NCBI RefSeq assembly: GCF_053078305.1
Contig: NZ_CP166879.1
Reading direction: 5' to 3' (one strand)
Length of the DNA stretch: 64,000 nucleotides
The notes under the pieces: model-generated
The model's database searches: none
What the model saw: the letters and a program-made list of their open reading frames with translations, nothing else
What the model was told of the DNA's origin: nothing
Made by a program: the position numbers and the translations under genes
Shown: positions 2,541 through 54,667 of the stretch, in pieces
Layout of the letters: the number at the start of each line of letters is the position of its first letter
Numbering within the stretch: position 1 is the stretch's first letter

Positions 2541-3344
2541 TTAACGCTTCAGAGCGTCGCTTAACTCGTCACGCATGTTCGCCAGCATGGCTTTAACAAC
2601 ACGCGGGTTACCAGCAACGATGTTACCGGTCAGCATATAGTTATGACCACCGGTGAAGTCGCTGACGATGCCGCCCGCTTCACGAACCAGCAGCTCGCCT
2701 GCAGCGAAGTCCCACGGGCGCAGACCGATTTCAAAGAAACCGTCAACACGACCCGCAGCGACGTAAGCCAGATCCAGCGCCGCAGAACCGGTACGACGGA
2801 AGTCTGCACATTCGTTGAACAGTTTGCCGACGATGTTGATGTAGGTAGTGGCGTACTGTTTTGCTTTGAACGGGAAGCCGGTCGCCAGAATAGTACCGTC
2901 GAGATCGCGAGCGGTGCTGCCGCGCAGACGGTAGCCGTTCAGCTGTGCGCCCTGACCGCGAGTGGCGGTGAACAGTTCGTTACGCATAGGATCGTATACC
3001 ACAGCAACTTCGGTGCGGCCTTTGATACGAACGGCGATAGATACCGCGAAGTGCGGCAGACGTTTGATAAAGTTGGTAGTGCCATCCAGTGGATCGATAA
3101 CCCATTGAACATCCTGATCAGTACCTTCAAGTTCACCGCTTTCTTCGGTGATGATGGTGTGCTGTGGGTAAGATTTACGAATCGTGTCGATAATCACCGC
3201 TTCGGCAGCTTTATCTACGTTGGTCACGAAATCGTTACTGCCTTTCTGGCTCGCTTCTACAGCGTCCGGGGTTTCATAGTTTTTGGCAATTAAATTACCC
3301 GCCTTGCGCGCTGCGCGCACGGCGATGTTCAGCATCGGATGCAT
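2541..3344 (-). CDS. suhB: inositol monophosphatase SuhB
   Basis: 267-aa ORF, IMPase motifs (WVIDPLDGT), synteny. Confidence 0.9.
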   Translation of the reverse strand: MHPMLNIAVRAARKAGNLIAKNYETPDAVEASQKGSNDFVTNVDKAAEAVIIDTIRKSYPQHTIITEESGELEGTDQDVQWVIDPLDGTTNFIKRLPHFAVSIAVRIKGRTEVAVVYDPMRNELFTATRGQGAQLNGYRLRGSTARDLDGTILATGFPFKAKQYATTYINIVGKLFNECADFRRTGSAALDLAYVAAGRVDGFFEIGLRPWDFAAGELLVREAGGIVSDFTGGHNYMLTGNIVAGNPRVVKAMLANMRDELSDALKR

Positions 3345-3462
3345 CGGTCTCTCTCACTGGATGTTAAAGAACGGGAAAACGGCGCAGAGTATAGCAGCGA
3401 GATCGGCATCTGTCTTCGTTTTATGATAAGATGCGCGAATAATCTTTAGACGAAGAAAGACA

Positions 3463-7668: not shown

Positions 7669-9519
7669 ATGGCCTTATTACAAATTAGTGAACCTGGTTT
7701 GAGTGCTGCGCCGCATCAGCGTCGTCTGGCGGCCGGTATTGACCTGGGCACAACCAACTCGCTGGTGGCGACAGTGCGCAGCGGTCAGGCCGAAACGTTA
7801 GCCGACCATGAAGGCCGTCACCTGCTGCCATCTGTTGTTCACTATCAACAGCAAGGGCATTCGGTGGGTTATGACGCGCGTACTAATGCAGCGCTCGATA
7901 CCGCCAACACAATTAGTTCTGTTAAACGCCTGATGGGACGCTCGCTGGCTGATATCCAGCAACGCTATCCGCATCTGCCTTATCAATTCCAGGCCAGCGA
8001 AAACGGCCTGCCGATGATTGAAACGGCGGCGGGGCTGCTGAACCCGGTGCGCGTTTCTGCGGACATCCTCAAAGCACTGGCGGCGCGGGCAACTGAAGCC
8101 CTGGCAGGCGAGCTGGATGGTGTAGTTATCACCGTTCCGGCGTACTTTGACGATGCCCAGCGTCAGGGCACCAAAGACGCGGCGCGTCTGGCGGGCCTTC
8201 ACGTCCTGCGCTTACTTAACGAACCGACCGCTGCGGCTATCGCCTACGGGCTGGATTCCGGTCAGGAAGGCGTGATCGCCGTTTATGACCTCGGTGGCGG
8301 GACGTTTGATATTTCCATTCTGCGCTTAAGTCGCGGCGTGTTTGAAGTGCTGGCAACCGGCGGTGATTCCGCGCTCGGCGGCGATGATTTCGACCATCTG
8401 CTGGCGGATTACATTCGCGAGCAGGCGGGCATTCCTGATCGTAGCGATAACCGCGTTCAGCGTGAACTGCTGGATGCCGCCATTGCAGCCAAAATCGCGC
8501 TGAGCGATGCGGACTCCGTGACCGTTAACGTTGCGGGCTGGCAGGGCGAAATCAGCCGTGAACAATTCAATGAACTGATCGCGCCACTGGTAAAACGAAC
8601 CTTACTGGCCTGTCGTCGCGCGCTGAAAGATGCGGGTGTTGAGGCTGACGAAGTACTGGAAGTGGTGATGGTGGGCGGTTCTACTCGCGTGCCGCTGGTG
8701 CGTGAACGGGTAGGCGAATTTTTCGGTCGTCCACCGCTGACTTCCATCGACCCGGATAAAGTCGTCGCTATTGGCGCGGCGATTCAGGCGGATATTCTGG
8801 TGGGTAACAAGCCAGACAGCGAAATGCTGTTGCTTGATGTGATCCCACTGTCGCTGGGCCTCGAAACGATGGGCGGCCTGGTGGAGAAAGTGATTCCGCG
8901 TAATACCACTATTCCGGTGGCCCGCGCTCAGGATTTCACCACCTTTAAAGATGGTCAGACGGCGATGTCTATCCATGTAATGCAGGGTGAGCGCGAACTG
9001 GTGCAGGACTGCCGCTCACTGGCGCGTTTTGCGCTGCGTGGTATTCCGGCGCTACCGGCTGGCGGTGCGCATATTCGCGTGACGTTCCAGGTCGATGCCG
9101 ACGGTCTTTTGAGCGTGACGGCGATGGAGAAATCCACCGGCGTTGAGGCGTCTATTCAGGTCAAACCGTCTTACGGTCTGACCGATAGCGAAATCGCTTC
9201 GATGATCAAAGACTCAATGAGCTATGCCGAGCAGGACGTAAAAGCCCGAATGCTGGCAGAACAAAAAGTAGAAGCGGCGCGTGTGCTGGAAAGTCTGCAC
9301 GGCGCGCTGGCTGCTGATGCCGCGCTGTTAAGCGCCGCAGAACGTCAGGTCATTGACGATGCTGCCGCTCACCTGAGTGAAGTGGCGCAGGGCGATGATG
9401 TTGACGCCATCGAACAAGCGATTAAAAACGTAGACAAACAAACCCAGGATTTCGCCGCTCGCCGCATGGACCAGTCGGTTCGTCGTGCGCTGAAAGGCCA
9501 TTCCGTGGACGAGGTTTAA
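7669..9519 (+). CDS. hscA: Fe-S cluster chaperone HscA (Hsp70 family)
   Basis: ORF track 7615..9519; recognised start [10 protein letters not shown] at 7669; 616 aa. Confidence 0.95.
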
Positions 9520-14561: not shown

Positions 14562-17500
14562 ATGAAAAAGTTACGCGTAGCCGCCTGCATGCTAATGCTG
14601 GCGCTGGCAGGGTGCGACAACAACGATAACGCGCCAACAGCGGTGAAAAAAGATGCGCCTTCTGAAGTTACTAAAGCGGCCTCTTCAGAAAACGCGAGTT
14701 CAGCAAAACTCTCCGCGCCAGAGCGACAAAAACTGGCCCAACAGAGTGCCGGTAAGGCGCTGACATTGCTGGATCTCTCTGAAGTCCAACTTGATGGTGC
14801 AGCCACGCTGGTGCTGACGTTCTCCATCCCTCTCGACCCGGATCAGGATTTCTCACGCGTTATTCATGTCGTCGATAAAAAAAGCGGCAAAGTGGATGGT
14901 GCCTGGGAGCTGTCAGATAATCTTAAAGAGCTGCGTTTACGCCACCTCGAACCGAAACGTGATTTGATCGTTACTATTGGCAAGGAGGTCAAAGCACTCA
15001 ACAACGCAACCTTCAGTAAAGATTACGAAAAAACTATAACTACCCGCGACATCCAACCCAGCGTCGGTTTTGCCAGCCGTGGTTCGCTGCTGCCAGGTAA
15101 AGTCGTTGAAGGGCTGCCGGTAATGGCGCTCAACGTTAATAATGTCGATGTTAACTTCTTCCGCGTTAAGCCAGAATCTCTGCCAGCATTCATCAGCCAA
15201 TGGGAATACCGCAATTCGCTGGCGAACTGGCAGTCAGACAAACTGCTGCAGATGGCGGATCTGGTCTACACCGGACGGTTTGATCTCAATCCTGCGCGTA
15301 ACACCCGTGAAAAATTATTGCTGCCGCTGGGCGATATCAAACCGCTTCAGCAGGCGGGCGTGTATCTGGCTGTGATGAATCAGGCTGGACGTTACGATTA
15401 CAGTAATCCCGCGACGCTGTTTACGTTAAGTGATATCGGCGTTTCAGCTCATCGTTATCACAATCGTCTGGATATCTTTACCCAAAGTCTGGAAAACGGC
15501 GCGGCCCAGCAAGGAATTGAAGTCTCTTTATTAAATGAGAAAGGGCAGACTCTGACTCAGGCAACCAGTGACGCTCAGGGGCATGTGCAGCTGGAAAATG
15601 ATAAAAACGCCGCATTATTGCTGGCACGTAAAGACGGTCAGACAACGCTACTCGATTTAAAACTTCCGGCGCTGGACTTAGCAGAATTTAACATTGCTGG
15701 CGCGCCAGGCTATAGCAAACAGTTTTTCATGTTTGGCCCGCGCGATCTTTATCGCCCGGGAGAAACGGTCATCCTCAATGGTTTGCTGCGTGATGCAGAC
15801 GGTAAAGCGTTGCCCAATCAACCCATCAAGTTAGACGTGATTAAACCCGATGGGCAGGTACTCAGGAGCGTCGTTAGTCAGCCGGAAAATGGCCTCTACC
15901 ACTTTACCTGGCCACTCGATAGCAATGCGGCAACCGGTATGTGGCATATTCGTGCTAACACGGGCGATAACCAGTATCGGATGTGGGATTTCCACGTCGA
16001 AGATTTTATGCCAGAGCGTATGGCGCTGAATCTGACCGGTGAGAAAACCCCGCTTACGCCGAATGATGAAGTGAAATTCTCCGTGGTGGGATACTACCTG
16101 TACGGTGCGCCTGCTAATGGTAATACTTTGCAAGGGCAACTTTTCCTGCGCCCACTGCGTGAGGCTGTGTCAGCCTTACCTGGTTTTGAATTCGGCGATA
16201 TAGCTGCCGAAAACCTTTCCCGCACGCTGGATGAAGTTCAGTTGACGCTGGATGATAAAGGGCGCGGCGAAGTTTCTACAGAAAGCCAGTGGAAGGAAAC
16301 GCATTCCCCATTGCAGGTTATTTTCCAGGGCAGTTTGCTGGAATCGGGCGGTCGCCCGGTGACGCGCCGTGCTGAGCAGGCTATCTGGCCAGCCGATGCA
16401 TTGCCGGGGATCCGTCCGCAGTTCGCCTCGAAATCGGTTTACGATTATCGCACTGACAGCACGGTGAAACAGCCCATTGTTGATGAAGGCAGTAACGCCG
16501 CTTTTGACATCGTTTATAGCGATGCGCAAGGCGTGAAAAAAGCCGTGTCGGGCTTGCAGGTGCGCCTGATTCGCGAACGCCGCGATTACTACTGGAACTG
16601 GTCAGAAGATGAAGGCTGGCAATCACAGTTTGATCAAAAAGATCTGATTGAAAATGAACAAACTCTGGATCTGAAAGCGGACGAAACCGGCAAGGTCAGT
16701 TTCCCGGTAGAGTGGGGCGCTTATCGTCTGGAAGTCAAAGCGCCGAATGAAGCGGTCAGTAGTGTGCGTTTCTGGGCTGGCTATAGCTGGCAGGACAACA
16801 GCGACGGGAGCGGTGCCGTGCGACCCGACCGTGTCACGCTGAAACTAGATAAAGCCAGTTATCGCCCTGGCGATACCATTAAGTTGCATATTGCCGCGCC
16901 AACGGCGGGTAAAGGTTATGCGATGGTCGAGTCCAGTGAAGGGCCGCTGTGGTGGCAAGAGATTGATGTTCCGGCTCAAGGGCTTGATCTGACGATTCCG
17001 GTCGATAAAACCTGGAATCGTCATGATCTTTATTTGAGTACGCTGGTGGTGCGTCCTGGCGATAAATCTCGCTCCGCGACGCCAAAACGCGCGGTTGGTG
17101 TGTTGCATCTGCCGCTTGGTGATGAAAACCGTCGCCTCGGTCTGGCGCTGGAAACACCAGCAAAAATGCGTCCCAATCAACCATTAACCGTGAAAATTAA
17201 AGCCAGCACTAAAAATGGCGAGAAGCCTAAACAGGTGAATGTGCTGGTGTCTGCCGTTGATAGTGGTGTGCTGAATATTACTGACTACGTCACGCCAGAT
17301 CCGTGGCAGGCGTTCTTTGGTCAGAAACGCTATGGCGCAGACATTTACGATATTTACGGTCAGGTTATTGAAGGTCAGGGGCGTCTGGCAGCTCTGCGTT
17401 TCGGTGGCGATGGTGATGAGCTGAAACGTGGTGGTAAACCGCCGGTCAATCACGTCAATATTGTCGCGCAGCAGGCGCTGCCGGTAACGCTCAACGAACA

Positions 17501-19523
17501 GGGCGAAGGCTCGGTTACACTGCCGATTGGCGATTTTAACGGTGAATTGCGCGTCATGGCGCAAGCCTGGACGGCAGATGACTTCGGTAGCAACGAAAGC
17601 AAAGTGATAGTTGCCGCACCGGTGATTGCTGAACTGAACATGCCGCGCTTTATGGCGAGTGGCGATACCTCGCGTCTGACGCTGGATATCACTAATCTTA
17701 CCGATAAACCGCAAAAACTGAACGTTGCCCTGACCGCCAGTGGTTTGCTTGAACTGGTCAGCGATTCACCCGCAGCCGTTGAATTAGCGCCAGGTGTGCG
17801 TACTACGCTGTTTATCCCGGTGCGAGCATTGCCGGGTTATGGCGATGGAGAAATTCAGGCCACCATTAGCGGGTTAGCGTTACCGGGTGAAACCGTTGCC
17901 GATCAGCATAAGCAGTGGAAAATCGGCGTCCGTCCGGCGTTCCCGGCACAAACGGTTAATTACGGTACGGCGTTACAGCCTGGTGAGACATGGGCGATTC
18001 CGGCGGATGGATTGCAAAACTTCTCGCCTGTTACGCTGGAAGGGCAATTGTTGTTGAGCGGCAAACCACCGCTGAACATCGCACGTTATATCAAAGAGTT
18101 AAAAGCGTATCCGTACGGCTGTCTTGAGCAAACCGCCAGCGGCCTGTTCCCGTCACTTTATACCAACGCAGCCCAACTGCAGGCGTTGGGCATCAAAGGC
18201 GACAGTGATGAGAAACGCCGTGCATCGGTCGATATCGGCATTTCCCGTTTGCTGCAAATGCAACGTGATAACGGCGGCTTTGTGCTGTGGGATAAAAACG
18301 GTGACGAAGAGTACTGGCTGACGGCTTACGTGATGGATTTCCTGGTCCGCGCAGGCGAACAGGGTTACAGCGTGCCGACAGACGCCATTAACCGGGGTAA
18401 TGAGCGTCTGCTGCGCTATTTACAAGATCCGGGCATGATGTCGATCCCGTACGCGGATAATCTCAAAGCCAGTAAATTCGCCGTACAGTCTTACGCTGCG
18501 CTGGTGTTGGCCCGTCAGCAAAAGGCTCCGCTGGGTGCGCTGCGTGAAATCTGGGAGCATCGTGCAGATGCCGCTTCTGGTTTACCGCTGCTGCAACTTG
18601 GCGTTGCGCTGAAAACCATGGGTGATGCAACGCGTGGTGAAGAAGCGATTGTGCTGGCGCTGAAAACGCCGAGAAATAGTGATGAGCGGATATGGCTGGG
18701 TGATTACGGTAGTCCACTGCGCGACAACGCGTTAATGCTCTCCTTGCTGGAAGAAAATAAACTGCTACCCGATGAGCAGTACACTTTGCTGAACACACTT
18801 TCGCAGCAGGCGTTTGGTGAACGCTGGCTATCGACGCAGGAAAGTAACGCGTTGTTCCTGGCTGCCCGTACGATTCAGGATTTACCGGGTAAATGGCAGG
18901 CGCAAACCTCTTTCTCAGCTGAGCCGCTGACAGGCGAGAAAGCGCAAAACAGCAATCTGAATAGCGATCAACTTGCCACCTTGCAGGTGAGCAACAGTGG
19001 CGATCAGCCGTTATGGTTGCGTGTGGATGCCAGCGGTTATCCGCAATCCGCACCTTTACCGGCGAACAATGTGCTGCAAATCGAGCGTCATATTCTTGGT
19101 ACTGATGGTAAGAGCAAATCGCTGGACTCGTTACGTAGCGGCGATCTGGTGCTGGTGTGGTTGCAGGTAAAAGCCAGTAACAGCGTGCCGGATGCGTTGG
19201 TCGTGGATCTGCTGCCTGCGGGTCTGGAACTGGAAAACCAGAATCTGGCGAACGGTAGCGCCAGCCTGGAGCAAAGTGGTGGCGAAGTGCAGAACTTACT
19301 GAACCAGATGCAGCAGGCGAGTATTAAGCACATTGAGTTCCGTGACGATCGCTTTGTGGCGGCGGTTGCCGTTGATGAATACCAACCGGTAACGCTGGTG
19401 TATCTGGCGCGGGCGGTGACGCCGGGAACGTATCAGGTACCGCAACCGATGGTGGAATCAATGTATGTTCCCCAATGGCGGGCGACCGGCGCGGCTGAAG
19501 ATTTGCTGATTGTCAGACCGTAA
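14562..19523 (+). CDS. yfhM: alpha-2-macroglobulin family lipoprotein YfhM
   Basis: 1653-aa ORF with lipobox LAGC and thioester-region motif CLEQ. Confidence 0.9.
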   Translation: MKKLRVAACMLMLALAGCDNNDNAPTAVKKDAPSEVTKAASSENASSAKLSAPERQKLAQQSAGKALTLLDLSEVQLDGAATLVLTFSIPLDPDQDFSRVIHVVDKKSGKVDGAWELSDNLKELRLRHLEPKRDLIVTIGKEVKALNNATFSKDYEKTITTRDIQPSVGFASRGSLLPGKVVEGLPVMALNVNNVDVNFFRVKPESLPAFISQWEYRNSLANWQSDKLLQMADLVYTGRFDLNPARNTREKLLLPLGDIKPLQQAGVYLAVMNQAGRYDYSNPATLFTLSDIGVSAHRYHNRLDIFTQSLENGAAQQGIEVSLLNEKGQTLTQATSDAQGHVQLENDKNAALLLARKDGQTTLLDLKLPALDLAEFNIAGAPGYSKQFFMFGPRDLYRPGETVILNGLLRDADGKALPNQPIKLDVIKPDGQVLRSVVSQPENGLYHFTWPLDSNAATGMWHIRANTGDNQYRMWDFHVEDFMPERMALNLTGEKTPLTPNDEVKFSVVGYYLYGAPANGNTLQGQLFLRPLREAVSALPGFEFGDIAAENLSRTLDEVQLTLDDKGRGEVSTESQWKETHSPLQVIFQGSLLESGGRPVTRRAEQAIWPADALPGIRPQFASKSVYDYRTDSTVKQPIVDEGSNAAFDIVYSDAQGVKKAVSGLQVRLIRERRDYYWNWSEDEGWQSQFDQKDLIENEQTLDLKADETGKVSFPVEWGAYRLEVKAPNEAVSSVRFWAGYSWQDNSDGSGAVRPDRVTLKLDKASYRPGDTIKLHIAAPTAGKGYAMVESSEGPLWWQEIDVPAQGLDLTIPVDKTWNRHDLYLSTLVVRPGDKSRSATPKRAVGVLHLPLGDENRRLGLALETPAKMRPNQPLTVKIKASTKNGEKPKQVNVLVSAVDSGVLNITDYVTPDPWQAFFGQKRYGADIYDIYGQVIEGQGRLAALRFGGDGDELKRGGKPPVNHVNIVAQQALPVTLNEQGEGSVTLPIGDFNGELRVMAQAWTADDFGSNESKVIVAAPVIAELNMPRFMASGDTSRLTLDITNLTDKPQKLNVALTASGLLELVSDSPAAVELAPGVRTTLFIPVRALPGYGDGEIQATISGLALPGETVADQHKQWKIGVRPAFPAQTVNYGTALQPGETWAIPADGLQNFSPVTLEGQLLLSGKPPLNIARYIKELKAYPYGCLEQTASGLFPSLYTNAAQLQALGIKGDSDEKRRASVDIGISRLLQMQRDNGGFVLWDKNGDEEYWLTAYVMDFLVRAGEQGYSVPTDAINRGNERLLRYLQDPGMMSIPYADNLKASKFAVQSYAALVLARQQKAPLGALREIWEHRADAASGLPLLQLGVALKTMGDATRGEEAIVLALKTPRNSDERIWLGDYGSPLRDNALMLSLLEENKLLPDEQYTLLNTLSQQAFGERWLSTQESNALFLAARTIQDLPGKWQAQTSFSAEPLTGEKAQNSNLNSDQLATLQVSNSGDQPLWLRVDASGYPQSAPLPANNVLQIERHILGTDGKSKSLDSLRSGDLVLVWLQVKASNSVPDALVVDLLPAGLELENQNLANGSASLEQSGGEVQNLLNQMQQASIKHIEFRDDRFVAAVAVDEYQPVTLVYLARAVTPGTYQVPQPMVESMYVPQWRATGAAEDLLIVRP

Positions 19524-21836
19524 ATGCCTCGCTTGTTAACCAAACGCGGCTGCTGGATAACGCTGGCAGCTGCGCCATTTCTCCTTTTTCTTGCAGCGTG
19601 GGGAGCAGATAAACTCTGGCCTCTACCGCTGCATGAAGTCAATCCCGCACGAGTGGTCGTGGCGCAGGATGGTACGCCGCTCTGGCGCTTCGCCGATGCT
19701 GACGGCATCTGGCGTTATCCTGTAACAATCGAAGATGTTTCTCCACGTTACCTTGAAGCGCTGATCAATTATGAAGATCGCTGGTTCTGGAAGCATCCTG
19801 GGGTGAATCCATTCTCGGTGGCGCGCGCAGCATGGCAAGATTTCACTTCGGGACGGGTTATTTCCGGTGGCAGCACGCTCACTATGCAGGTTGCTCGTCT
19901 GCTTGATCCTCACCCCAAAACATTTGGCGGCAAAATTCGCCAGCTCTGGCGCGCGTTGCAACTGGAGTGGCATTTGTCTAAGCGTGAAATTCTGACCTTG
20001 TATCTTAACCGCGCTCCGTTTGGCGGTACGTTGCAGGGGATCGGTGCGGCAAGTTGGGCTTATCTCGGAAAATCGCCTGCGAATTTAAGCTATTCCGAGG
20101 CGGCAATGCTGGCGGTTTTGCCGCAAGCGCCCAGCCGTCTTCGCCCGGATCGTTGGCCGGAGCGTGCCGAAGCCGCGCGTAATAAAGTGCTCGAACGGAT
20201 GGCCGTGCAAGGTGTGTGGTCCCGTGAGCAGGTAAAAGAGTCAAGGGAAGAACCCATCTGGCTGGCACCCCGACAAATGCCGCAACTGGCACCGCTGTTT
20301 TCGCGCATGATGCTCGGTAAAAGTAAAAGCGACAAAATCGTTACTACGCTGGATGCCGGGCTTCAGCGACGTCTGGAAGAACTGGCGCAAAACTGGAAAG
20401 GACGATTGCCGCCGCGCAGCTCACTGGCGATGATCGTGGTTGATCATACCGATATGCGTGTTCGCGGCTGGGTGGGATCGGTAGATCTCAACGATGATTC
20501 ACGCTTTGGTCATGTTGATATGGTCAATGCGATCCGATCGCCAGGATCGGTGCTCAAACCGTTTGTTTATGGTCTGGCGCTGGATGAAGGCTTGATCCAC
20601 CCGGCATCACTGCTGCAAGACGTCCCCCGGCGCACCGGTGATTATCGACCAGGTAACTTTGATAGCGGTTTTCATGGCCCGATCAGCATGAGCGAGGCGC
20701 TGGTGCGCTCGCTGAATTTACCTGCTGTGCAGGTACTGGAAGCCTATGGACCGAAACGGTTTGCGGCAAAGTTACGCAATGTTGGATTGCCGTTATATTT
20801 GCCCAACGGTGCGGCGCCGAATCTTTCGCTCATTCTCGGCGGCGCTGGTGCAAAACTGGAAGATATGGCGGCAGCGTATACCGCGTTTGCTCGCCACGGC
20901 AAGGCAGGCAAATTGCGCTTACAGCCTGACGATCCGCTGCTTGAACGGCCTTTAATGTCGTCGGGGGCTGCGTGGATCATTCGCCGGATTATGGCTGATG
21001 AAGCGCAACCCTTGCCGGATGGTGCCTTGCCGCGCGTCGCCCCACTGGCATGGAAAACGGGCACCAGCTATGGCTATCGTGACGCCTGGGCGATTGGGGT
21101 TAACGCTCGCTATGTCATTGGGATCTGGACTGGCAGACCGGACGGCACGCCCGTTGTTGGTCAGTTTGGTTTTGCCAGCGCCGTACCATTGTTGAATCAG
21201 GTCAATAATATCTTACTGTCGCGCAGTGCTAATCTGCCGGAAGACCCGCGCCCGAACTCAGTCACTCGTGGCGTTATCTGCTGGCCGGGCGGACAGTCTT
21301 TGCCGGAAGGTGACGGTAACTGTCGCCGCCGCCTGGCAACCTGGCTGCTGGACGGGAGTCAGCCGCCAACTCTATTACTGCCGGAGCAGGAAGGCATTAA
21401 TGGCATTCGTTTCCCCATCTGGCTGGATGAAAATGGCAAACGTGTTGCCGCTGATTGCCCTCAGGCGCGACAAGAAATGATAAATGTCTGGCCGCTACCG
21501 CTGGAACCCTGGTTGCCCGCATCAGAACGCCGCGCTGTGCGCTTACCACCGGCCTCGACAATTTGCCCGCCATACGGTCACGATGCCCAGCTCCCGCTGC
21601 AGCTGACAGGCGTTCGCGATGGCGAGATTATTAAACGTTTACCGGGCGCAGCGGAAGCGACTTTGCCGTTGCAATCAAGTGGAGGGGCAGGTGAACGCTG
21701 GTGGTTTCTGAATGGCGAACCGTTAACTGAACGCGGGCGCAACGTGACCCTGCATTTGACGGATAAAGGTGATTATCAATTGCTGGTGATGGATGACGTA
21801 GGGCAAATCGCGTCAGTACATTTTTCATTTCAGTGA
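19524..21836 (+). CDS. pbpC: penicillin-binding protein 1C (PbpC)
   Basis: 770-aa ORF; glycosyltransferase and transpeptidase (SVLKP) motifs; start abuts yfhM stop. Confidence 0.9.
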   Translation: MPRLLTKRGCWITLAAAPFLLFLAAWGADKLWPLPLHEVNPARVVVAQDGTPLWRFADADGIWRYPVTIEDVSPRYLEALINYEDRWFWKHPGVNPFSVARAAWQDFTSGRVISGGSTLTMQVARLLDPHPKTFGGKIRQLWRALQLEWHLSKREILTLYLNRAPFGGTLQGIGAASWAYLGKSPANLSYSEAAMLAVLPQAPSRLRPDRWPERAEAARNKVLERMAVQGVWSREQVKESREEPIWLAPRQMPQLAPLFSRMMLGKSKSDKIVTTLDAGLQRRLEELAQNWKGRLPPRSSLAMIVVDHTDMRVRGWVGSVDLNDDSRFGHVDMVNAIRSPGSVLKPFVYGLALDEGLIHPASLLQDVPRRTGDYRPGNFDSGFHGPISMSEALVRSLNLPAVQVLEAYGPKRFAAKLRNVGLPLYLPNGAAPNLSLILGGAGAKLEDMAAAYTAFARHGKAGKLRLQPDDPLLERPLMSSGAAWIIRRIMADEAQPLPDGALPRVAPLAWKTGTSYGYRDAWAIGVNARYVIGIWTGRPDGTPVVGQFGFASAVPLLNQVNNILLSRSANLPEDPRPNSVTRGVICWPGGQSLPEGDGNCRRRLATWLLDGSQPPTLLLPEQEGINGIRFPIWLDENGKRVAADCPQARQEMINVWPLPLEPWLPASERRAVRLPPASTICPPYGHDAQLPLQLTGVRDGEIIKRLPGAAEATLPLQSSGGAGERWWFLNGEPLTERGRNVTLHLTDKGDYQLLVMDDVGQIASVHFSFQ

Positions 21837-21930
21837 AATATACAAAATATTTATTAATCTAATTATGGTATTTATATTTGGAATGCATTAATAATTTAAT
21901 AATCTCACGTTTTTTTAAACGACTAATTAT

Positions 21931-21944
21931 TTGATTGTTATCAG
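21931..21944 (+). promoter_or_regulatory. FNR-like binding site upstream of DMSO-reductase-family operon
   Basis: TTGATTGTTATCAG matches TTGAT-N4-ATCAA at 9/10; 56 bp upstream of ATG in an AT-rich region. Confidence 0.35.
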
Positions 21945-21999
21945 CATTGTTCTCGAATAAATACGTGAATATTTATTTTTTCATTTTCGGGAACGCAAG

Positions 22000-24381
22000 A
22001 TGGATACGCCAGACGAAAAGGAACGCATTACATTTCCGCAAGTATCACGACGTAGTTTTTTACAAGCGACTTCCGCGCTTATCACTTTGCCTTTTATTTC
22101 TTATACCGTAAAGGCGCAATCCCCAGATGCGTCGCCAGAAGTTACAGCTCCAGTAGCTGATAAAGTCGTGCCCACCTGTAGCACATTTGACTGCGGTGGT
22201 AAGTGCGATATTCGGGCGCATATGCGCGACGGTGTGGTGACGCAAATTACCACGCTTCCCGATAACGAACTGGATCCACAAATGCCGATTATGCGCGCCT
22301 GTGTTCGTGGTTGCGGCTATCGTAAATTTGTTTATCATCCAGACCGCCTCAAATATCCGATGAAACGGGTCGGTAAACGGGGCGAGGGGAAATTTGAGCG
22401 TATTTCATGGGATGAGGCGACGACCTTAATTGCCGATAACCTGAAAAGGATCACGCAACAATATGGCCCGGCTTCACGTTATGTCCATGTCGGGACGGCT
22501 GTTTCTGGTGGAACATTTTCTGGTGATGCGATGGCGCGTCGGCTGTTAAATTTAACCGGTGGTTATCTTGAATATTATCACTCAGTTAGTCTGGGTAATA
22601 CTGCGGCGGCAACGCCTTACACGTATGGCGTGGCGGCCAGCGGTAACTCGATGGATACTCTTCTGGATACCAAACTGGTGATCCTCTGGGGGCATAACCC
22701 AACGGAAACCATCTTCGGTCACACCAATTACTTTTTTCAAAAAATGAAGCAAAACGGTACGCGTTTTATCGTGGTAGATCCGCGTTATTCCGACACTGTA
22801 TCTTCGCTTGCCGATCAGTGGATCCCGCTGCTGCCGACCACGGACAATGCGTTGATGGACGCGATGATGTACGTCATTATCAGCGAAAATCTCCACAATA
22901 AGACATTTATCGACACATATACTCTCGGTTTTGATGAAAACTCTATGCCAGAAGGCGTACCAGCCAACGAATCGTTGGTTGCCTACCTTTTTGGCGCAAA
23001 AGATGGGATACACAAAACGCCGGAATGGGCAGAAAAAATTACCCACGTTCCAGCACAATCCATTCGTCAACTGGCACGCGATTACGCCACTACAAAACCC
23101 GCAGCGTTGATTCAGGGATGGGGGCCACAGCGACATATTTGCGGCGAACGCACCGCCCGAGGTTCAACTTTACTGGCCTCGATTACCGGTAACGTCGGCA
23201 TCAAAGGTGGCTGGGCGGCAGGTTACGGCGGTAGTTCTAATCGTAAATTCTGCGTTGGACCAGATATGCCAGAAAATCCGGTACAAGCGAAAATCTCGAT
23301 TATGAACTGGATGCAGGCGGCGGATGATGCTTCTAAAGTTACGCCGCAAGATGGGCTTAAAGGTGTCGATAAACTCGACAGTAATATCCGCCTGCTGTTC
23401 TCACTGGCAGGTAATTATCTGGCGAACCAGAACCCGGACGTCCACCAGGCCGCGAAGCTCCTTGAAGACGAATCTAAAATAGAATTCATCGTACTCAGCG
23501 ATCTGTTCATGACTCCGAGCGCGAAATATGCCGATGTGTTGCTGCCGGAAACCAGCTTTATGGAACGCTGGAATATCGGCGAAACATGGGGAACTGCGAG
23601 CTATCTTATTCTGTCAGAAAAACTGATTGAGCCGGATTTTGAACGTCGCACCGATTATGACTGGTTGCGTGACGTGGCGAAAAAACTGGGTGTCGAAGCC
23701 GAGTTCAGTCAAGGACGTGATGAGAAGCAATGGGTAGAGCATATCTGGGAGCAAACTCGTCTGGCGATGCCGGATGAAAATTTGCCGGACTTCGCGACCC
23801 TGCAAAAAACACGTCGACATCTTTTTAAAAGTGCGCCGCACATCGCTTTCGAAGCAAATATTCGCGATCCGCAGAATAATCCTTTCCCGACGCCTTCCGG
23901 CAAAATTGAGATCTTCTCTAAGCGTCTTTTTGATATGCAAGATCCAGAAATTCCCGCGCTTTCGCACTATGTCCCTGCATTTGAAGGGCCAGAAGATAAA
24001 CTGACGGCGAAATACCCGTTGCAGCTCATCACCTGGAAAGGGAAAAACCGTGCTAATTCCACCCAGTATGCTAACCCGTGGCTGCAAGAAGTTCAGACGC
24101 AAAAACTCTGGCTGAATCCGCAAGATGCAAAACAGCGCGGGATTAGCGAAGGAGATAGCGTAAAAATTTATAACGATCGTGGTGTGAGCATTATCCCGGT
24201 GGAAATAACCCCCCGTATCATCCCTGGCGTAGTTGCTATGCAGGCGGGGGCATGGTGGCAACCGGATGCACAAGGTATCGATCGCGGAGGCTGTGCCAAT
24301 GTACTGAGTTCGACCCGCATTACGGCGCTGGCGAAAGGGAATTCGCATCAAACAATGCTGGTGGAGGTTGAGAAAGCATGA
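22000..24381 (+). CDS. molybdopterin (DMSO reductase family) oxidoreductase catalytic subunit with Tat signal
   Basis: 793 aa; SRRSFLQATSAL twin-arginine motif; N-terminal CxxCxxxC Fe-S motif (CSTFDCGGKC). Confidence 0.85.
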   Translation: MDTPDEKERITFPQVSRRSFLQATSALITLPFISYTVKAQSPDASPEVTAPVADKVVPTCSTFDCGGKCDIRAHMRDGVVTQITTLPDNELDPQMPIMRACVRGCGYRKFVYHPDRLKYPMKRVGKRGEGKFERISWDEATTLIADNLKRITQQYGPASRYVHVGTAVSGGTFSGDAMARRLLNLTGGYLEYYHSVSLGNTAAATPYTYGVAASGNSMDTLLDTKLVILWGHNPTETIFGHTNYFFQKMKQNGTRFIVVDPRYSDTVSSLADQWIPLLPTTDNALMDAMMYVIISENLHNKTFIDTYTLGFDENSMPEGVPANESLVAYLFGAKDGIHKTPEWAEKITHVPAQSIRQLARDYATTKPAALIQGWGPQRHICGERTARGSTLLASITGNVGIKGGWAAGYGGSSNRKFCVGPDMPENPVQAKISIMNWMQAADDASKVTPQDGLKGVDKLDSNIRLLFSLAGNYLANQNPDVHQAAKLLEDESKIEFIVLSDLFMTPSAKYADVLLPETSFMERWNIGETWGTASYLILSEKLIEPDFERRTDYDWLRDVAKKLGVEAEFSQGRDEKQWVEHIWEQTRLAMPDENLPDFATLQKTRRHLFKSAPHIAFEANIRDPQNNPFPTPSGKIEIFSKRLFDMQDPEIPALSHYVPAFEGPEDKLTAKYPLQLITWKGKNRANSTQYANPWLQEVQTQKLWLNPQDAKQRGISEGDSVKIYNDRGVSIIPVEITPRIIPGVVAMQAGAWWQPDAQGIDRGGCANVLSSTRITALAKGNSHQTMLVEVEKA

Positions 24382-25007
24382 GCCAATTTAAAGAATTTGC
24401 ATCTGTCAGCGACAAACAATTAGGGTTCTTTATTGACTCTTCGCGTTGTTCTGGCTGTAAAGCGTGTCAGGTGGCCTGTAAAGACAAAAACAACCTTGAG
24501 GTTGGGCGACGTTTTCGCCGCGTGTATGAAGTGAACGGCGGTGGCTTCATCGCCACTGGAGAGGGCGGTGTGAGTCATAATGTCTTTGCTTATACCCTTT
24601 CTGTTTCCTGTAACCATTGCGCGGATCCGATCTGTACCAAAAATTGCCCGACGATGGCGATGCATAAGCGTCCCGGAGACGGCATTGTGCGCGTGAATAC
24701 TGATAAGTGCGTCGGTTGCGGTTACTGCGCCTGGTCCTGTCCTTACGGCGCACCACAAATGAATGAGCAGACCGGGCAGATGTCGAAATGCGATTTCTGT
24801 ATTGATCTGCAAGCTAAAGGAGAACAACCCATTTGCGTGGCAACGTGCCCGTTGGGGGCGATTAAGTTCGGCCCTATTGATGAGTTGCGTGAAAAGTATG
24901 GCGATGTCAGTGATGTGAAAGGTTTACCTGATTCGTCGATTACGCAGCCAAATCTGGTGATTAAACCGCATCAGGGCGCGGAAAAGGAGGCGTCACATCA
25001 TGCATGA
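24378..25007 (+). CDS. 4Fe-4S ferredoxin-type electron transfer subunit (DmsB-like)
   Basis: 209 aa with multiple CxxCxxCxxxCP motifs; ATGA overlap with upstream gene. Confidence 0.85.
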   Translation: MSQFKEFASVSDKQLGFFIDSSRCSGCKACQVACKDKNNLEVGRRFRRVYEVNGGGFIATGEGGVSHNVFAYTLSVSCNHCADPICTKNCPTMAMHKRPGDGIVRVNTDKCVGCGYCAWSCPYGAPQMNEQTGQMSKCDFCIDLQAKGEQPICVATCPLGAIKFGPIDELREKYGDVSDVKGLPDSSITQPNLVIKPHQGAEKEASHHA

Positions 25008-25821
25008 ATTACCGTTAATGGCTTTTACGCTGTTGTTACAGGCATCGGTCGGTATGACGTTGTGGCTGGCGTTTCTTCATCGTCATATTTTAATCACCTC
25101 CAGTGCCCGCCCGGTTATGCGACCGCCATTACTGTTGGCTTTTTTGGCCGGGGCAGTAGGGTTACTGATTTCTACCTTACACCTGGGTTATCCACTTAAT
25201 GCGATGCATGCGCTAAGTCACTTTTCCAGTTCATGGCTGAGTCGGGAAATTATCTTTGGTGCGCTGTATCTGGCGCTATTGGGTTTAACCACATTACTGG
25301 TCATGTTACACAAAGGCGGCTGGCAACTCCTTCTTATGCTAGCGGCAGTGGTCGGAATTGTTGATGTTTTCTGCATGGCGCAAGTTTACATCCATACGTC
25401 GATTATCACCTGGCAGCATTACAACACGCTGATTATGTTCTTAGGTACAGTGGGAATTCTCGGTTCAGCGCTGGTAGCAGTGTTTCGTATTAGCGGAATT
25501 TTGCCGCAGATTGATGCCCTGCGTAATGGATGCGTGTTGGTGATCGCTCTCCTGGTTCTGTTGCGCTTGTTGGTTCAGCCGTTGTGGGTAGGGGATTTAA
25601 CGGCGAATGCGATGCAGATAGCTACACTGCCACATGCGCCATTAGCGATGCTGGGACAGTTAAAACCCATACTGACACTAAGCTGGGGAATTTCCGTCAT
25701 TGGGATGATGTTCTTTGCTGTCGGTGGTTGTAAAAAGAATATCCCTGCGGCGTTATTCGGTAGCGTACTGCTAGTGGGCAGTGAAGTTATGCTGCGTTTT
25801 GTCTTTTTTAGTATCGGCTAA
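25000..25821 (+). CDS. integral membrane anchor subunit (DmsC-like)
   Basis: 273 aa, highly hydrophobic multi-TM; 8-bp overlap with upstream gene. Confidence 0.75.
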   Translation: MHELPLMAFTLLLQASVGMTLWLAFLHRHILITSSARPVMRPPLLLAFLAGAVGLLISTLHLGYPLNAMHALSHFSSSWLSREIIFGALYLALLGLTTLLVMLHKGGWQLLLMLAAVVGIVDVFCMAQVYIHTSIITWQHYNTLIMFLGTVGILGSALVAVFRISGILPQIDALRNGCVLVIALLVLLRLLVQPLWVGDLTANAMQIATLPHAPLAMLGQLKPILTLSWGISVIGMMFFAVGGCKKNIPAALFGSVLLVGSEVMLRFVFFSIG

Positions 25822-26675
25822 TGTTAAGTCATAACATAACGATTGGCGCGGAATGCGCGCGCCAACGCTTTCGTTTTGCAACATGTCATGCCTGTGTCGA
25901 GGCTTGCCCGGCACAGGCGCTAACGCTGACAGAAGAGGGCATAGCGGTCGACGCGGAACAATGTATTGAGTGTGCGGTTTGCCAGTTTATTTGTCCGCAA
26001 GAGGCTATTCGTGGCGTTAATTCCCCTTTACGTTATTTTCGCAATCACACCCTGGTCGCACCTTTCACCACTATTGCGCCGACGCTGGAAGAACTTTTGC
26101 TATGGCATAAAGAGCAGGGGATCACAGCGATCGCGATTGATCTGAGTCAGGCGAAGGCATGGGAGCGCGCATTATTGCTGTTAAACGAACGCTTACGGCA
26201 ATATGGCGAGGAAGGCTGGTCTGTGGTATCTCCACATACCAGTGAGGTGAATGTTTCCCGGCGTCGTTTGTTCCATGTGCAGCGTGCGGATGTTCAGATG
26301 ACACAAATACAACCAGGATTACGTCGGTTACATTATTTATGGCCCCAGATTAGTGATGCTCGCCCGATGATGGATCCTCAAAAGTGTCAGCTTTGCGGTG
26401 CATGCTGGCGGGCCTGCGAGCAACAGGTCTTTTCGCTTAACGAAGGCCATTTACAAATCAATGATGCCTTGTGTAACGGATGCCAAAATTGTATTGCTGT
26501 TTGTTTTCATCAGGCAATGACCGTTGAATTGACGATTCTACCGGCAAAAATTGTGAATCTTCATGCTAATCGCAAAGTCTGTAAAACCTGTCAAAAATCC
26601 TTTCTTACTTTTCAGCAAAATGCGCAAAATTGTCTTTATTGCCAACGTCATCGCTATGGGATGAGAGCACCATAA
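25821..26675 (+). CDS. cysteine-rich ferredoxin-like protein, fourth gene of the operon
   Basis: 284 aa; motifs CHACVEACP, CIECAVCQFICP, CQLCGACWRAC, CNGCQNCIAVC; TAATG stop/start overlap. Confidence 0.7.
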   Translation: MLSHNITIGAECARQRFRFATCHACVEACPAQALTLTEEGIAVDAEQCIECAVCQFICPQEAIRGVNSPLRYFRNHTLVAPFTTIAPTLEELLLWHKEQGITAIAIDLSQAKAWERALLLLNERLRQYGEEGWSVVSPHTSEVNVSRRRLFHVQRADVQMTQIQPGLRRLHYLWPQISDARPMMDPQKCQLCGACWRACEQQVFSLNEGHLQINDALCNGCQNCIAVCFHQAMTVELTILPAKIVNLHANRKVCKTCQKSFLTFQQNAQNCLYCQRHRYGMRAP

Positions 26676-26815
26676 AAGTCGAGTTGTTGCTAAAACTCAT
26701 TTTATTTTAAAAAAATGTTACCTTCATCAATAGTCAACGGCCCTGTTGCTCATTATAATCCGCGCCATCTCGTACGCTGGTACAGACAACAACAGAACAA
26801 TTTACAGAGGTAAAA

Positions 26816-35864: not shown

Positions 35865-37477
<1,613 letters not shown>

Positions 37478-46461: not shown

Positions 46462-46475
46462 TTGATATATATCAA
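46462..46475 (+). promoter_or_regulatory. FNR binding site upstream of pdeF
   Basis: TTGATATATATCAA is a perfect TTGAT-N4-ATCAA palindrome 128 bp upstream of pdeF start. Confidence 0.5.
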
Positions 46476-46602: not shown

Positions 46603-48846
46603 ATGAAACTGAATGCAACTTATATAAAAATACGTGATAAATGGTGGGGGCTTCCGCTGTTCCTGCCTTCTTTAATCTTGCCCATTTTCGCCCACATTAA
46701 TACTTTCGCGCATATTTCTTCCGGTGAGGTTTTTCTCTTTTATCTGCCTTTGGCACTGATGATCAGCATGATGATGTTTTTCAGCTGGGCGGCATTGCCA
46801 GGGATCGCCTTAGGGATTTTTGTCCGCAAATATGCAGAGCTTGGTTTTTACGAAACGCTCTCATTAACGGCTAATTTTATTATCATTATCATTCTCTGTT
46901 GGGGCGGTTACAGGGTCTTTACTCCCCGCCGTAACAACGTTTCACATGGTGATACCCGTTTAATTTCCCAGCGTATATTCTGGCAGATTGTGTTTCCTGC
47001 AACGCTGTTTCTGATACTTTTCCAGTTTGCTGCGTTTGTAGGATTACTGGCGAGCAGAGAAAATCTGGTCGGCGTCATGCCTTTTAACCTCGGGACCTTA
47101 ATCAATTATCAGGCCTTACTGGTGGGTAATCTGATCGGTGTCCCGCTGTGCTACTTCATCATTCGGGTAGTGCGAAATCCATTTTATTTACGTAGCTATT
47201 ATTCGCAATTAAAACAGCAGGTTGATGTCAAAGTCACCAAAAAAGAGTTCGCACTCTGGCTACTGGCATTAGGTGCTTTACTGTTGCTGTTATGCATGCC
47301 GTTAAATGAAAAAAGCACAATTTTTAGCACCAATTATACCTTGTCATTATTGCTGCCCCTGATGATGTGGGGAGCGATGCGCTATGGTTATAAGCTGATT
47401 TCGCTGCTCTGGGCGGTCGTGTTGATGATCAGCATCCACAGCTATCAAAATTACATTCCCATTTATCCTGGCTATACCACGCAGCTGACCATAACCTCCT
47501 CCAGTTATCTGGTATTCTCTTTTATTGTCAATTATATGGCTGTACTGGCAACCCGTCAGAGAACGGTAGTCAGACGCATTCAGCGGCTTGCGTATGTGGA
47601 CCCGGTGGTTCATCTGCCAAATGTTCGCGCCCTGAATCGCGCGTTGCGTGATGCCCCCTGGTCTGCGCTTTGTTATTTACGCATCCCTGGCATGGAAATG
47701 CTGGTTAAGAACTATGGCATCATGCTGCGGATTCAATACAAGCAAAAACTTTCTCACTGGCTGTCACCCTTGCTGGAACCGGGTGAAGATGTTTATCAGC
47801 TTTCGGGTAACGATCTCGCGCTGCGACTGAATACAGAATCGCACCAGGAGCGCATTGCCGCACTGGATAGCCATCTCAAGCAATTTCGTTTCTTTTGGGA
47901 TGGCATGCCGATGCAACCGCAGATTGGCGTCAGTTACTGCTATGTGCGCTCGCCAGTGAATCATATCTACCTGCTGCTGGGAGAGCTAAATACGGTCGCC
48001 GAACTTTCCATCGTGACCAACGCCCCGGAAAATATGCAGCGTCGCGGGGCAATGTATTTGCAACGCGAATTGAAAGATAAAGTCGCGATGATGAATCGAC
48101 TACAGCAGGCGCTGGAACACAACCATTTTTTCCTGATGGCCCAGCCGATTACCGGTATGCGTGGTGATGTTTACCATGAAATTCTTCTGCGCATGAAAGG
48201 TGAGAATGATGAACTGATCGGCCCCGATAGCTTCTTGCCGGTCGCGCACGAATTTGGTTTATCGTCGAGTATCGACATGTGGGTCATTGAGCATACGCTG
48301 CAATTTATGGCTGAAAACAGAGCGAAGATGCCCGCTCACCGTTTTGCTATTAATCTGTCTCCAACCTCGGTATGTCAGGCTCGTTTTCCTGTTGAAGTCA
48401 GTCAGTTGCTGGATAAATATCAGATTGAAGCGTGGCAACTTATTTTTGAAGTCACCGAAAGTAATGCTCTGACCAATGTTAAGCAGGCGCAAATCACCTT
48501 GCAGCATCTTCAGGAATTAGGCTGCCAGATTGCGATTGATGATTTCGGCACCGGCTACGCCAGCTATGCGCGGCTTAAAAATGTGAATGCCGATCTGCTT
48601 AAAATTGACGGCAGTTTTATCCGCAATATTGTGTCAAATAGTCTGGATTATCAGATAGTGGCATCGATTTGCCACCTGGCGCGAATGAAGAAAATGCGGG
48701 TAGTGGCAGAGTACGTTGAAAACGAAGAGATCCGCGAGGCGGTGCTCTCTTTGGGGATCGATTATATGCAGGGTTATCTTATTGGTAAGCCGCAGCCGTT
48801 AATTGATACGTTGAATGAAATCGAACCCATTCGCGAAAGTGCCTGA
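46603..48846 (+). CDS. pdeF: c-di-GMP phosphodiesterase PdeF (YfgF); MASE1 membrane domain, degenerate GGDEF, EAL
   Basis: 747-aa ORF with multi-TM N-terminus and EAL-domain motifs. Confidence 0.85.
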   Translation: MKLNATYIKIRDKWWGLPLFLPSLILPIFAHINTFAHISSGEVFLFYLPLALMISMMMFFSWAALPGIALGIFVRKYAELGFYETLSLTANFIIIIILCWGGYRVFTPRRNNVSHGDTRLISQRIFWQIVFPATLFLILFQFAAFVGLLASRENLVGVMPFNLGTLINYQALLVGNLIGVPLCYFIIRVVRNPFYLRSYYSQLKQQVDVKVTKKEFALWLLALGALLLLLCMPLNEKSTIFSTNYTLSLLLPLMMWGAMRYGYKLISLLWAVVLMISIHSYQNYIPIYPGYTTQLTITSSSYLVFSFIVNYMAVLATRQRTVVRRIQRLAYVDPVVHLPNVRALNRALRDAPWSALCYLRIPGMEMLVKNYGIMLRIQYKQKLSHWLSPLLEPGEDVYQLSGNDLALRLNTESHQERIAALDSHLKQFRFFWDGMPMQPQIGVSYCYVRSPVNHIYLLLGELNTVAELSIVTNAPENMQRRGAMYLQRELKDKVAMMNRLQQALEHNHFFLMAQPITGMRGDVYHEILLRMKGENDELIGPDSFLPVAHEFGLSSSIDMWVIEHTLQFMAENRAKMPAHRFAINLSPTSVCQARFPVEVSQLLDKYQIEAWQLIFEVTESNALTNVKQAQITLQHLQELGCQIAIDDFGTGYASYARLKNVNADLLKIDGSFIRNIVSNSLDYQIVASICHLARMKKMRVVAEYVENEEIREAVLSLGIDYMQGYLIGKPQPLIDTLNEIEPIRESA

Positions 48847-54423: not shown

Positions 54424-54667
54424 ACTGCTTTACACAACCTTTTTGCACGTCTTTTCCCCAGGCGCGCGGCGAAAGAAGATTTGTGCCAGGGCAAAGGTTA
54501 GTTTTCGGATGGAATAATCTTCTTTCATAACCATTTGAATATAAAATAACTTTATCTCAAACCGTTATCATTTTGACTAAAGTCAACGAAAATAATATTG
54601 CCGCCTTGAAGAAAGGAGGTATAATCCGTCGATTTTTTTTGTGGCTGCCCCTCAAAGGAGAAAGAGT

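Follow-up and report, generated by a model that had tools for sequence, protein, structure and literature searches.

A predicted class II FNR-dependent promoter upstream of an accessory reductase operon in O157:H7-type Escherichia coli

The sequence TTGATTGTTATCAG is located on the + strand at positions 21931 to 21944 of the 64,000-nucleotide stretch of DNA analysed in this work (contig NZ_CP166879.1; referred to as the window), 56 to 69 nucleotides 5' of the ATG at position 22000. It is probably a genuine FNR site, through which FNR would activate the four-gene reductase operon at 22000-26675 from a class II, FNR-dependent sigma-70 promoter. This assignment is based on sequence comparisons, from which we infer FNR binding, the transcription start and O2 dependence in E. 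coli itself. The window was found to be E. coli DNA, and the stretch in question is 100% identical to O157:H7 strains. Promoters of this type are well known and the element is an ordinary one among them; its identification leaves the understanding of FNR and of promoter architecture unchanged. It does provide a concrete, predicted anaerobic control element for an accessory respiratory operon that is a marker of O157:H7-type E. coli. In the accessible parts of the literature, no description of this site in E. coli was found, and FNR control of the Salmonella ortholog is already reported there.

The FNR box and the predicted promoter

The FNR consensus, TTGAT-N4-ATCAA (TTGATNNNNATCAA), is matched by the box at 9 of 10 positions. 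The sole mismatch is a G in place of an A at position 14, and G3 and C12, the G/C pair of the half-sites, are both kept. The same box was found in every copy from E. coli and Escherichia sp. that was inspected, with the exception of one cryptic-clade genome. A preliminary description of this DNA, made from the sequence alone, had referred to an FNR-like box 56-69 bp upstream of the start codon in an AT-rich promoter region. These points hold: the distance to the ATG is exact, the half-sites are not only close to the consensus but also kept across orthologous loci, and the G+C content amounts to 22% for the 163-nt intergenic region 21837-21999 and to 25.5% for 21800-21999. The ATG at 22000 is also the start annotated by RefSeq in a 99.6%-identical E. 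coli genome.

The predicted -10 hexamer follows the box at a 22-nt gap and places the predicted transcription start about 21 nt before the ATG (Table 1). The box centre, at 21937.5, is accordingly predicted to lie at -41.5, which corresponds to the class II geometry; the preliminary description had proposed a site near -41.5 and a start some 20 nt before the ATG, and the present prediction agrees with it. In K-12, an FNR site at -41.5 +/- 4 is present in 19 of the 23 directly FNR-activated promoters with a known start. A -10-like hexamer is also found elsewhere, in the form of GAGAAT or GAAAAT in orthologs and of TAATAT in one E. coli strain.

A scan of 21700-22150 with the sigma-70 consensus identified no promoter, as compared with 1.5 expected in shuffled sequences. 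The lack of a canonical -35/-10 pair is as expected, because the activator site takes the -35 position in class II promoters, and this result lends weak support to activator dependence. An Rfam scan of 21500-22300 (E<=1) returned nothing, including molybdenum cofactor (Moco) or other riboswitches. Two further elements may bear on expression. The conserved T-rich tract at 21976-21987 is possibly a U-rich translational enhancer or a part of the initial transcribed sequence, and the AT-rich segment 21837-21930 is a candidate for occupancy by H-NS, IHF or Fis.

According to the mechanism proposed, dimeric holo-FNR, with its O2-sensing [4Fe-4S] cluster, would bind the inverted repeat centred at 21937.5 when O2 is absent. 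The FNR site would overlap the place where a -35 hexamer would sit, and FNR would recruit RNA polymerase to the weak -10 hexamer GAATAT, with transcription starting near 21979. In the presence of O2, FNR would lose its cluster and the promoter, having no usable -35 hexamer, would be silent.

Table 1. Coordinates of the observed and predicted features of the operon and its upstream region (window numbering)
Feature	Coordinates	Strand	Remarks
Accessory segment, including the whole promoter and the box	21829..26683		Between the end of pbpC and the region upstream of ndk
AT-rich upstream part of the intergenic region	21837..21930		Not conserved between genera
Predicted FNR box TTGATTGTTATCAG	21931..21944	+	Left half-site TTGAT 21931-21935, spacer TGTT 21936-21939, right half-site ATCAG 21940-21944
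Predicted -10 hexamer GAATAT	21967..21972	+	Starts 22 nt past the box; -11A and -7T invariant (15 sequences)
Conserved T-rich tract	21976..21987	+	Predicted initial transcribed region/leader, in otherwise little-conserved intergenic DNA
Predicted transcription start	21979 (about +/-2 nt)	+	From the position of the -10 hexamer; leader of about 21 nt
Shine-Dalgarno-like GGGAA	21989..21993	+	6 nt before the ATG; AGGAA in orthologs; G21990 invariant
DMSO/selenate-family molybdoenzyme A subunit	22000..24381	+	Tat signal SRRSFL; TIGR02166, 1118 bits (cut-off 777.7)
DmsB-type 4x[4Fe-4S] electron-transfer subunit	24378..25007	+	TIGR02951, 265.8 bits (cut-off 214.1)
DmsC-type membrane anchor	25000..25821	+	PF04976, 85.3 bits; annotation
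4Fe-4S dicluster (polyferredoxin) protein	25821..26675	+	Fourth gene, also in most orthologous loci

The reductase operon and its distribution

The operon consists of four ORFs that overlap or abut and is dmsABC-like with an additional polyferredoxin gene. That an accessory reductase operon lies downstream of the box, as stated in the preliminary description, is confirmed by the TIGR02166, TIGR02951 and PF04976 matches and by the strain distribution. Of 5426 complete E. coli genomes, 379 carry the full operon, most of them O157:H7 and relatives, and about 93% lack it. An identity of the A subunit with DmsA, YnfE or YnfF proper was rejected, as it scored 701, 664 and 686 bits against the NCBIfam cut-offs of 1600, 1675 and 1650, respectively. 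It is a member of a distinct paralog group and is orthologous to Salmonella STM2530.

The four gene products differ largely in their conservation. Between E. coli and S. enterica subsp. diarizonae, sequence identities are 83% for A, 87% for B, 52% for the anchor and 38% for the polyferredoxin; the corresponding values between subsp. diarizonae and Enterobacter are 91%, 94%, 69% and 51%. The loci set against window positions 25000-26675 were L004, L006, L009, L012 and L019. A foreign origin of the distal half of the E. coli operon was considered and ruled out: the anchor and the polyferredoxin evolve fast between all genera compared, and the divergence is therefore no E. coli-specific mosaic.

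The box and its operon are preceded by yfhM (14562-19523) and pbpC (19524-21836) and followed by ndk and rlmN. In the non-carriers, which include K-12, the alignment ends at about 21828 and resumes just 5' of ndk, and in MG1655 the homology picks up again at TTGTTGCTAAAACTC, at about 26684. Upon informal inspection of the segment junctions (about 21829 and 26683), no repeats or mobility genes were seen. The same slot between pbpC and ndk is used in Salmonella, Enterobacter, Superficieibacter, Huaxiibacter and one Lelliottia, which suggests ancestral presence and a loss in most E. coli rather than a gain in O157.

The Salmonella ortholog is the four-gene operon STM2530-STM2527 (STM14_3103-3100), which occupies the same pbpC-ndk position and was named psr1 in a 2025 preprint (PMC12636705). 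This preprint, citing the fnr-mutant microarray of Fink et al. 2007, counts STM2530/STM14_3103 as one of the loci with the strongest activation by FNR. The report of FNR activation concerns serovar Typhimurium, and a perfect box, TTGATAAATATCAA, was identified at the equivalent position in S. enterica subsp. arizonae and diarizonae. A literature search with the STM locus tags retrieved no promoter data, and one with presumed O157 locus tags retrieved unrelated papers only. The designation of the enzyme as a periplasmic sulfate reductase is found in the 2025 preprint only (PMC12636705).

Strength of the box and the possibility of decay

The strength of the box was assessed with a position weight matrix (PWM) derived from 62 ChIP-seq-positive K-12 FNR sites (Table S6 of Myers et al. 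2013, PMC3688515) and symmetrised; the yfgF site was left out of the training set because it lies in the window. The box scored 8.82 bits, ranking 18th among the 63,987 window positions, with an ln p of about -8.9 in an exact dynamic-programming calculation. About 6 bits are lost through the terminal G and about 3 bits through the TGTT spacer. A scan with an FNR matrix had been named as a check in the preliminary description, and its outcome is divided. On the one hand, the score is below that of all 63 high-quality ChIP-positive K-12 sites (minimum 11.9 bits), and its ln p falls short of the published threshold of -10.75 for high-quality predictions (PMC3688515). On the other hand, the motif scores of classical K-12 promoters that are bound in ChIP span this value, with published ln p values of -10.34 (dmsA), -10.3 (nrfA), -9.55 (nikA), -8.05 (pepT) and -5.15 (frdA) (Table S5, PMC3688515). 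Since the matrix was trained on sites pre-selected as strong, it over-penalises deviations, and 8.8 bits is therefore a conservative estimate.

Among close orthologs, the Escherichia box is the weakest version. Restoring A14 would lift it from 8.8 to 15 bits, boxes of the Salmonella/Enterobacter type score about 17 bits, and in the cryptic-clade Escherichia genome the right half-site is altered once more (GTCAG, 6.9 bits). As ATCAG is weaker than the perfect palindromes of most other genera, activation in Escherichia is probably weaker or needs fully active FNR.

These data also bear on the main alternative, according to which the box is a decaying relic, namely, an ancestral FNR site that was weakened in Escherichia by the A14 to G change and is covered by nucleoid proteins, so that FNR contributes little, the operon being silent under ordinary conditions or driven by read-through from pbpC or by a substrate-specific regulator. 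Apart from the low score and the second change in the cryptic-clade genome, this reading is favoured by the loss of the operon from most complete E. coli genomes and by the low G+C content of the region, given that nucleoid proteins often mask FNR sites in K-12. Of the 187 high-quality sites predicted in K-12, no more than 63 are occupied in vivo, and H-NS, IHF or Fis covers about 90% of those that are silent. No terminator was predicted after pbpC, and read-through from yfhM-pbpC could therefore add oxygen-independent expression. Furthermore, one study, whose authors suspected a regulation unlike that of other dms operons, found no DMSO-dependent growth phenotype for Salmonella STM2530 and no effect in anaerobic rich medium. 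In E. coli strain 4FM (locus L082), an IS1A element (2615-3440) is inserted right after the FNR box, at about window positions 21941-21950, with a 9-bp target duplication (TCAGCATTG). The insertion moves the box about 0.8 kb away from the -10 hexamer and the operon and is a natural promoter disruption.

Against decay, however, the E. coli carriers inspected show almost no variation in the box, the -10 hexamer and the four ORFs, all of which are intact, and the critical G and C of the two half-sites are retained. In addition, K-12 has bound and functional sites whose motif scores do not exceed that of the box, and the dcuC site CTGATTAAAATCAA, which has the same outer-position deviation as the box, is ChIP-seq positive in K-12 (PMC3688515). 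Taken together, a decayed site is unlikely, and a functional FNR site is preferred.

Chance expectation and conservation in orthologous loci

A palindrome that arose by chance in AT-rich DNA and has no regulatory role would be another alternative. Counts of consensus matches over the whole window are weak evidence and cannot tell the box from chance: four matches with at most one mismatch were found versus 2.73 +/- 1.52 expected, 25 of 100 shuffles reached four, and two of the four (at 7835 and 19372) fall within coding ORFs. The modest PWM rank of the box is likewise compatible with a chance origin. At the local level, by contrast, a match of at least 9/10 has a probability of 0.026 anywhere in 163 nt of such composition and of 0.005 when restricted to the class II-compatible distance of 50-77 nt before the ATG.

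The conservation of the box was analysed in a scan with one genome per species that yielded 80 Enterobacterales loci with relatives of the A subunit (67-98% identity), to which the window was added, giving 81 loci. The sampled genera were Escherichia, Salmonella, Enterobacter, Citrobacter, Leclercia, Lelliottia, Superficieibacter, Atlantibacter, Rahnella, Photorhabdus, Proteus, Morganella, Providencia and others. Positions in orthologs were counted from the conserved twin-arginine codons, and the 60-nt zone matching the box of the window was searched. A box matching the consensus at 9 or 10 of 10 positions was present in this zone in 45 of the 81 loci, as compared with 0.46 expected from composition-matched shuffles. 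The best box per locus was a 10/10 match in 29 cases, a 9/10 match in 16 and an 8/10 match in 14, for which 0.03, 0.43 and 5.2, respectively, were expected per 81 loci. Half-sites at the same position were found in orthologs of at least a dozen genera. The spacer is free to vary between genera (AAAT, AATT, ATGT, TCAT and others), whereas TTGAT and ATCAA are kept; fixed half-sites around a variable spacer are the signature of a protein-binding palindrome. Since the box is found with the operon between pbpC and ndk and also in unrelated genomic contexts, it belongs to the operon and travels with it. The loci that lack the box are mainly a more distant set (67-69% identity) from Proteus, Providencia and Morganella.

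A MAFFT alignment made without using the box as an anchor gave a corresponding result. It contained 15 intergenic regions in the pbpC context, from at least 7 genera, with a mean column identity of 54%. The half-sites are invariant in it, whereas conservation of the intergenic DNA around them is poor. All 15 sequences agree at TTGA (21931-21934), TC (21941-21942), A21961, A21968, T21972 and G21990, as well as at the T columns T21979, T21981 and T21984-21986. This conservation across orthologs is the statistically decisive evidence that the box is more than a chance match, and it leaves chance as a highly improbable explanation.

Two groups of loci showed additional particularities. In the Proteus loci L049, L051-L053, L055, L056, L060 and L071, a second, weaker FNR-like box with an 8/10 match (TTGATACAACTTAA or TTGATGCAACTTAA) is conserved at -226 from the twin-arginine anchor, about 105 nt 5' of the perfect box, which is at -121.5. 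This second box may represent a tandem or class I-type site, or else it may belong to the upstream gene. The Photorhabdus loci L039, L041-L046, L048 and L073, in which the A subunit has 74-75% identity, have no detectable DmsB, DmsC or ferredoxin homologs within the 3-kb downstream flank. Where an FNR-like box was found in these loci, it is about 20 nt further upstream, and the operon organisation is different.

That CRP or another member of the CRP/FNR family, rather than FNR, reads the site has very little probability: the sites of CRP are related to those of FNR, some FNR-bound K-12 promoters are co-activated by CRP, and the 16-mer TTTGATTGTTATCAGC matches the core TGTGA-N6-TCACA, but at 7 of 10 positions only and lacking the G that CRP prefers at the base discriminating the two regulators (the first T of TTGA), which is T in the left half-site of the window and in both half-sites of every perfect ortholog box. 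The right half-site of the window has a C at the symmetrical position, a signal for neither FNR nor CRP, the flanks beyond the 14-mer are not conserved in the 15-sequence alignment, and the Salmonella ortholog is reported as FNR-activated in the preprint cited above (PMC12636705).

Implications

The assignment of the box as an FNR site has practical consequences. Preprints have connected the Salmonella ortholog with virulence and with a new enzymatic activity that is contested. In studies of the enzyme, expression should be looked for in strictly anaerobic cultures, and perhaps in strains with an hns background. Where phenotypes are weak or absent, the lineage-specific weakening of the box is a possible reason.

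A more tentative idea, which is doubtful at present, concerns the evolution of the promoter. Escherichia may have fixed the weakening of ATCAA to ATCAG while most E. coli deleted the operon. The O157-type copy would then be either an intermediate on the way to gene loss or a promoter retuned to maximal FNR activity or to relief from H-NS in a niche such as the bovine gut. If either reading were true, expression of the reductase would be restricted to that niche.

Comparison with known FNR promoters

The putative promoter shares its main features with the class II promoters dmsABC P1, narG, nirB, frdA, nrfA and ynfE, namely, a 14-bp inverted repeat with a centre predicted at about -41.5. As in dmsABC P1 and its class II kin, the -10 hexamer is weak and a -35 hexamer is lacking. 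A further likeness to dmsABC P1 is that a Tat-exported molybdoenzyme with DmsB- and DmsC-type partners is encoded downstream, whereas the operon differs from dmsABC and ynfEFGH by its fourth gene, which encodes a polyferredoxin. Expression of dmsA is repressed by nitrate. In contrast to dmsABC P1, a NarL heptamer (TACYYMT, both strands) is absent from 21837-22010.

The window also contains an internal positive control. The gene yfgF/pdeF (46603-48846), encoding a 747-amino-acid MASE1-EAL protein, is preceded at a distance of 128-141 nt by the perfect FNR palindrome TTGATATATATCAA (46462-46475, 18.9 bits). The yfgF promoter has been characterised experimentally as a class II promoter with its box at -41.5 and the -10 hexamer TAGAAT (PMC3718329), and the site is ChIP-seq positive in K-12 (Table S6 of Myers 2013, PMC3688515). 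TAGAAT is located 21 nt past its box and GAATAT 22 nt past the box at 21931-21944, so that the two geometries agree within 1 nt. The two promoters differ in that yfgF is a core-genome gene with a leader of about 90 nt, whereas the operon is accessory and its predicted leader measures 21 nt.

Two other sequences in the window correspond to known sites: TTGACTAAAGTCAA (54573-54586, 15.6 bits) and GTGAGCGAGATCAA (37448-37461, 12.5 bits) are the reverse complements of the K-12 FNR ChIP-seq sites upp/purM and guaB/xseA, respectively. With the yfgF site, the window therefore contains at least three FNR sites verified in K-12. The distance between the yfgF box and the guaB/xseA-type sequence is about 9.0 kb in the window versus about 5.2 kb from K-12 coordinates, a difference that suggests either another copy or an indel with respect to K-12.

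The closest counterpart is the Salmonella STM2530-STM2527 operon, to which the E. coli locus is linked by orthology, by the position between pbpC and ndk and by the equivalent position of the box. The two loci differ in the quality of the box, which is perfect in subsp. arizonae and diarizonae and a 9/10 match in E. coli, and in the AT-rich DNA upstream of it, which is unrelated between the Salmonella and the E. coli locus.
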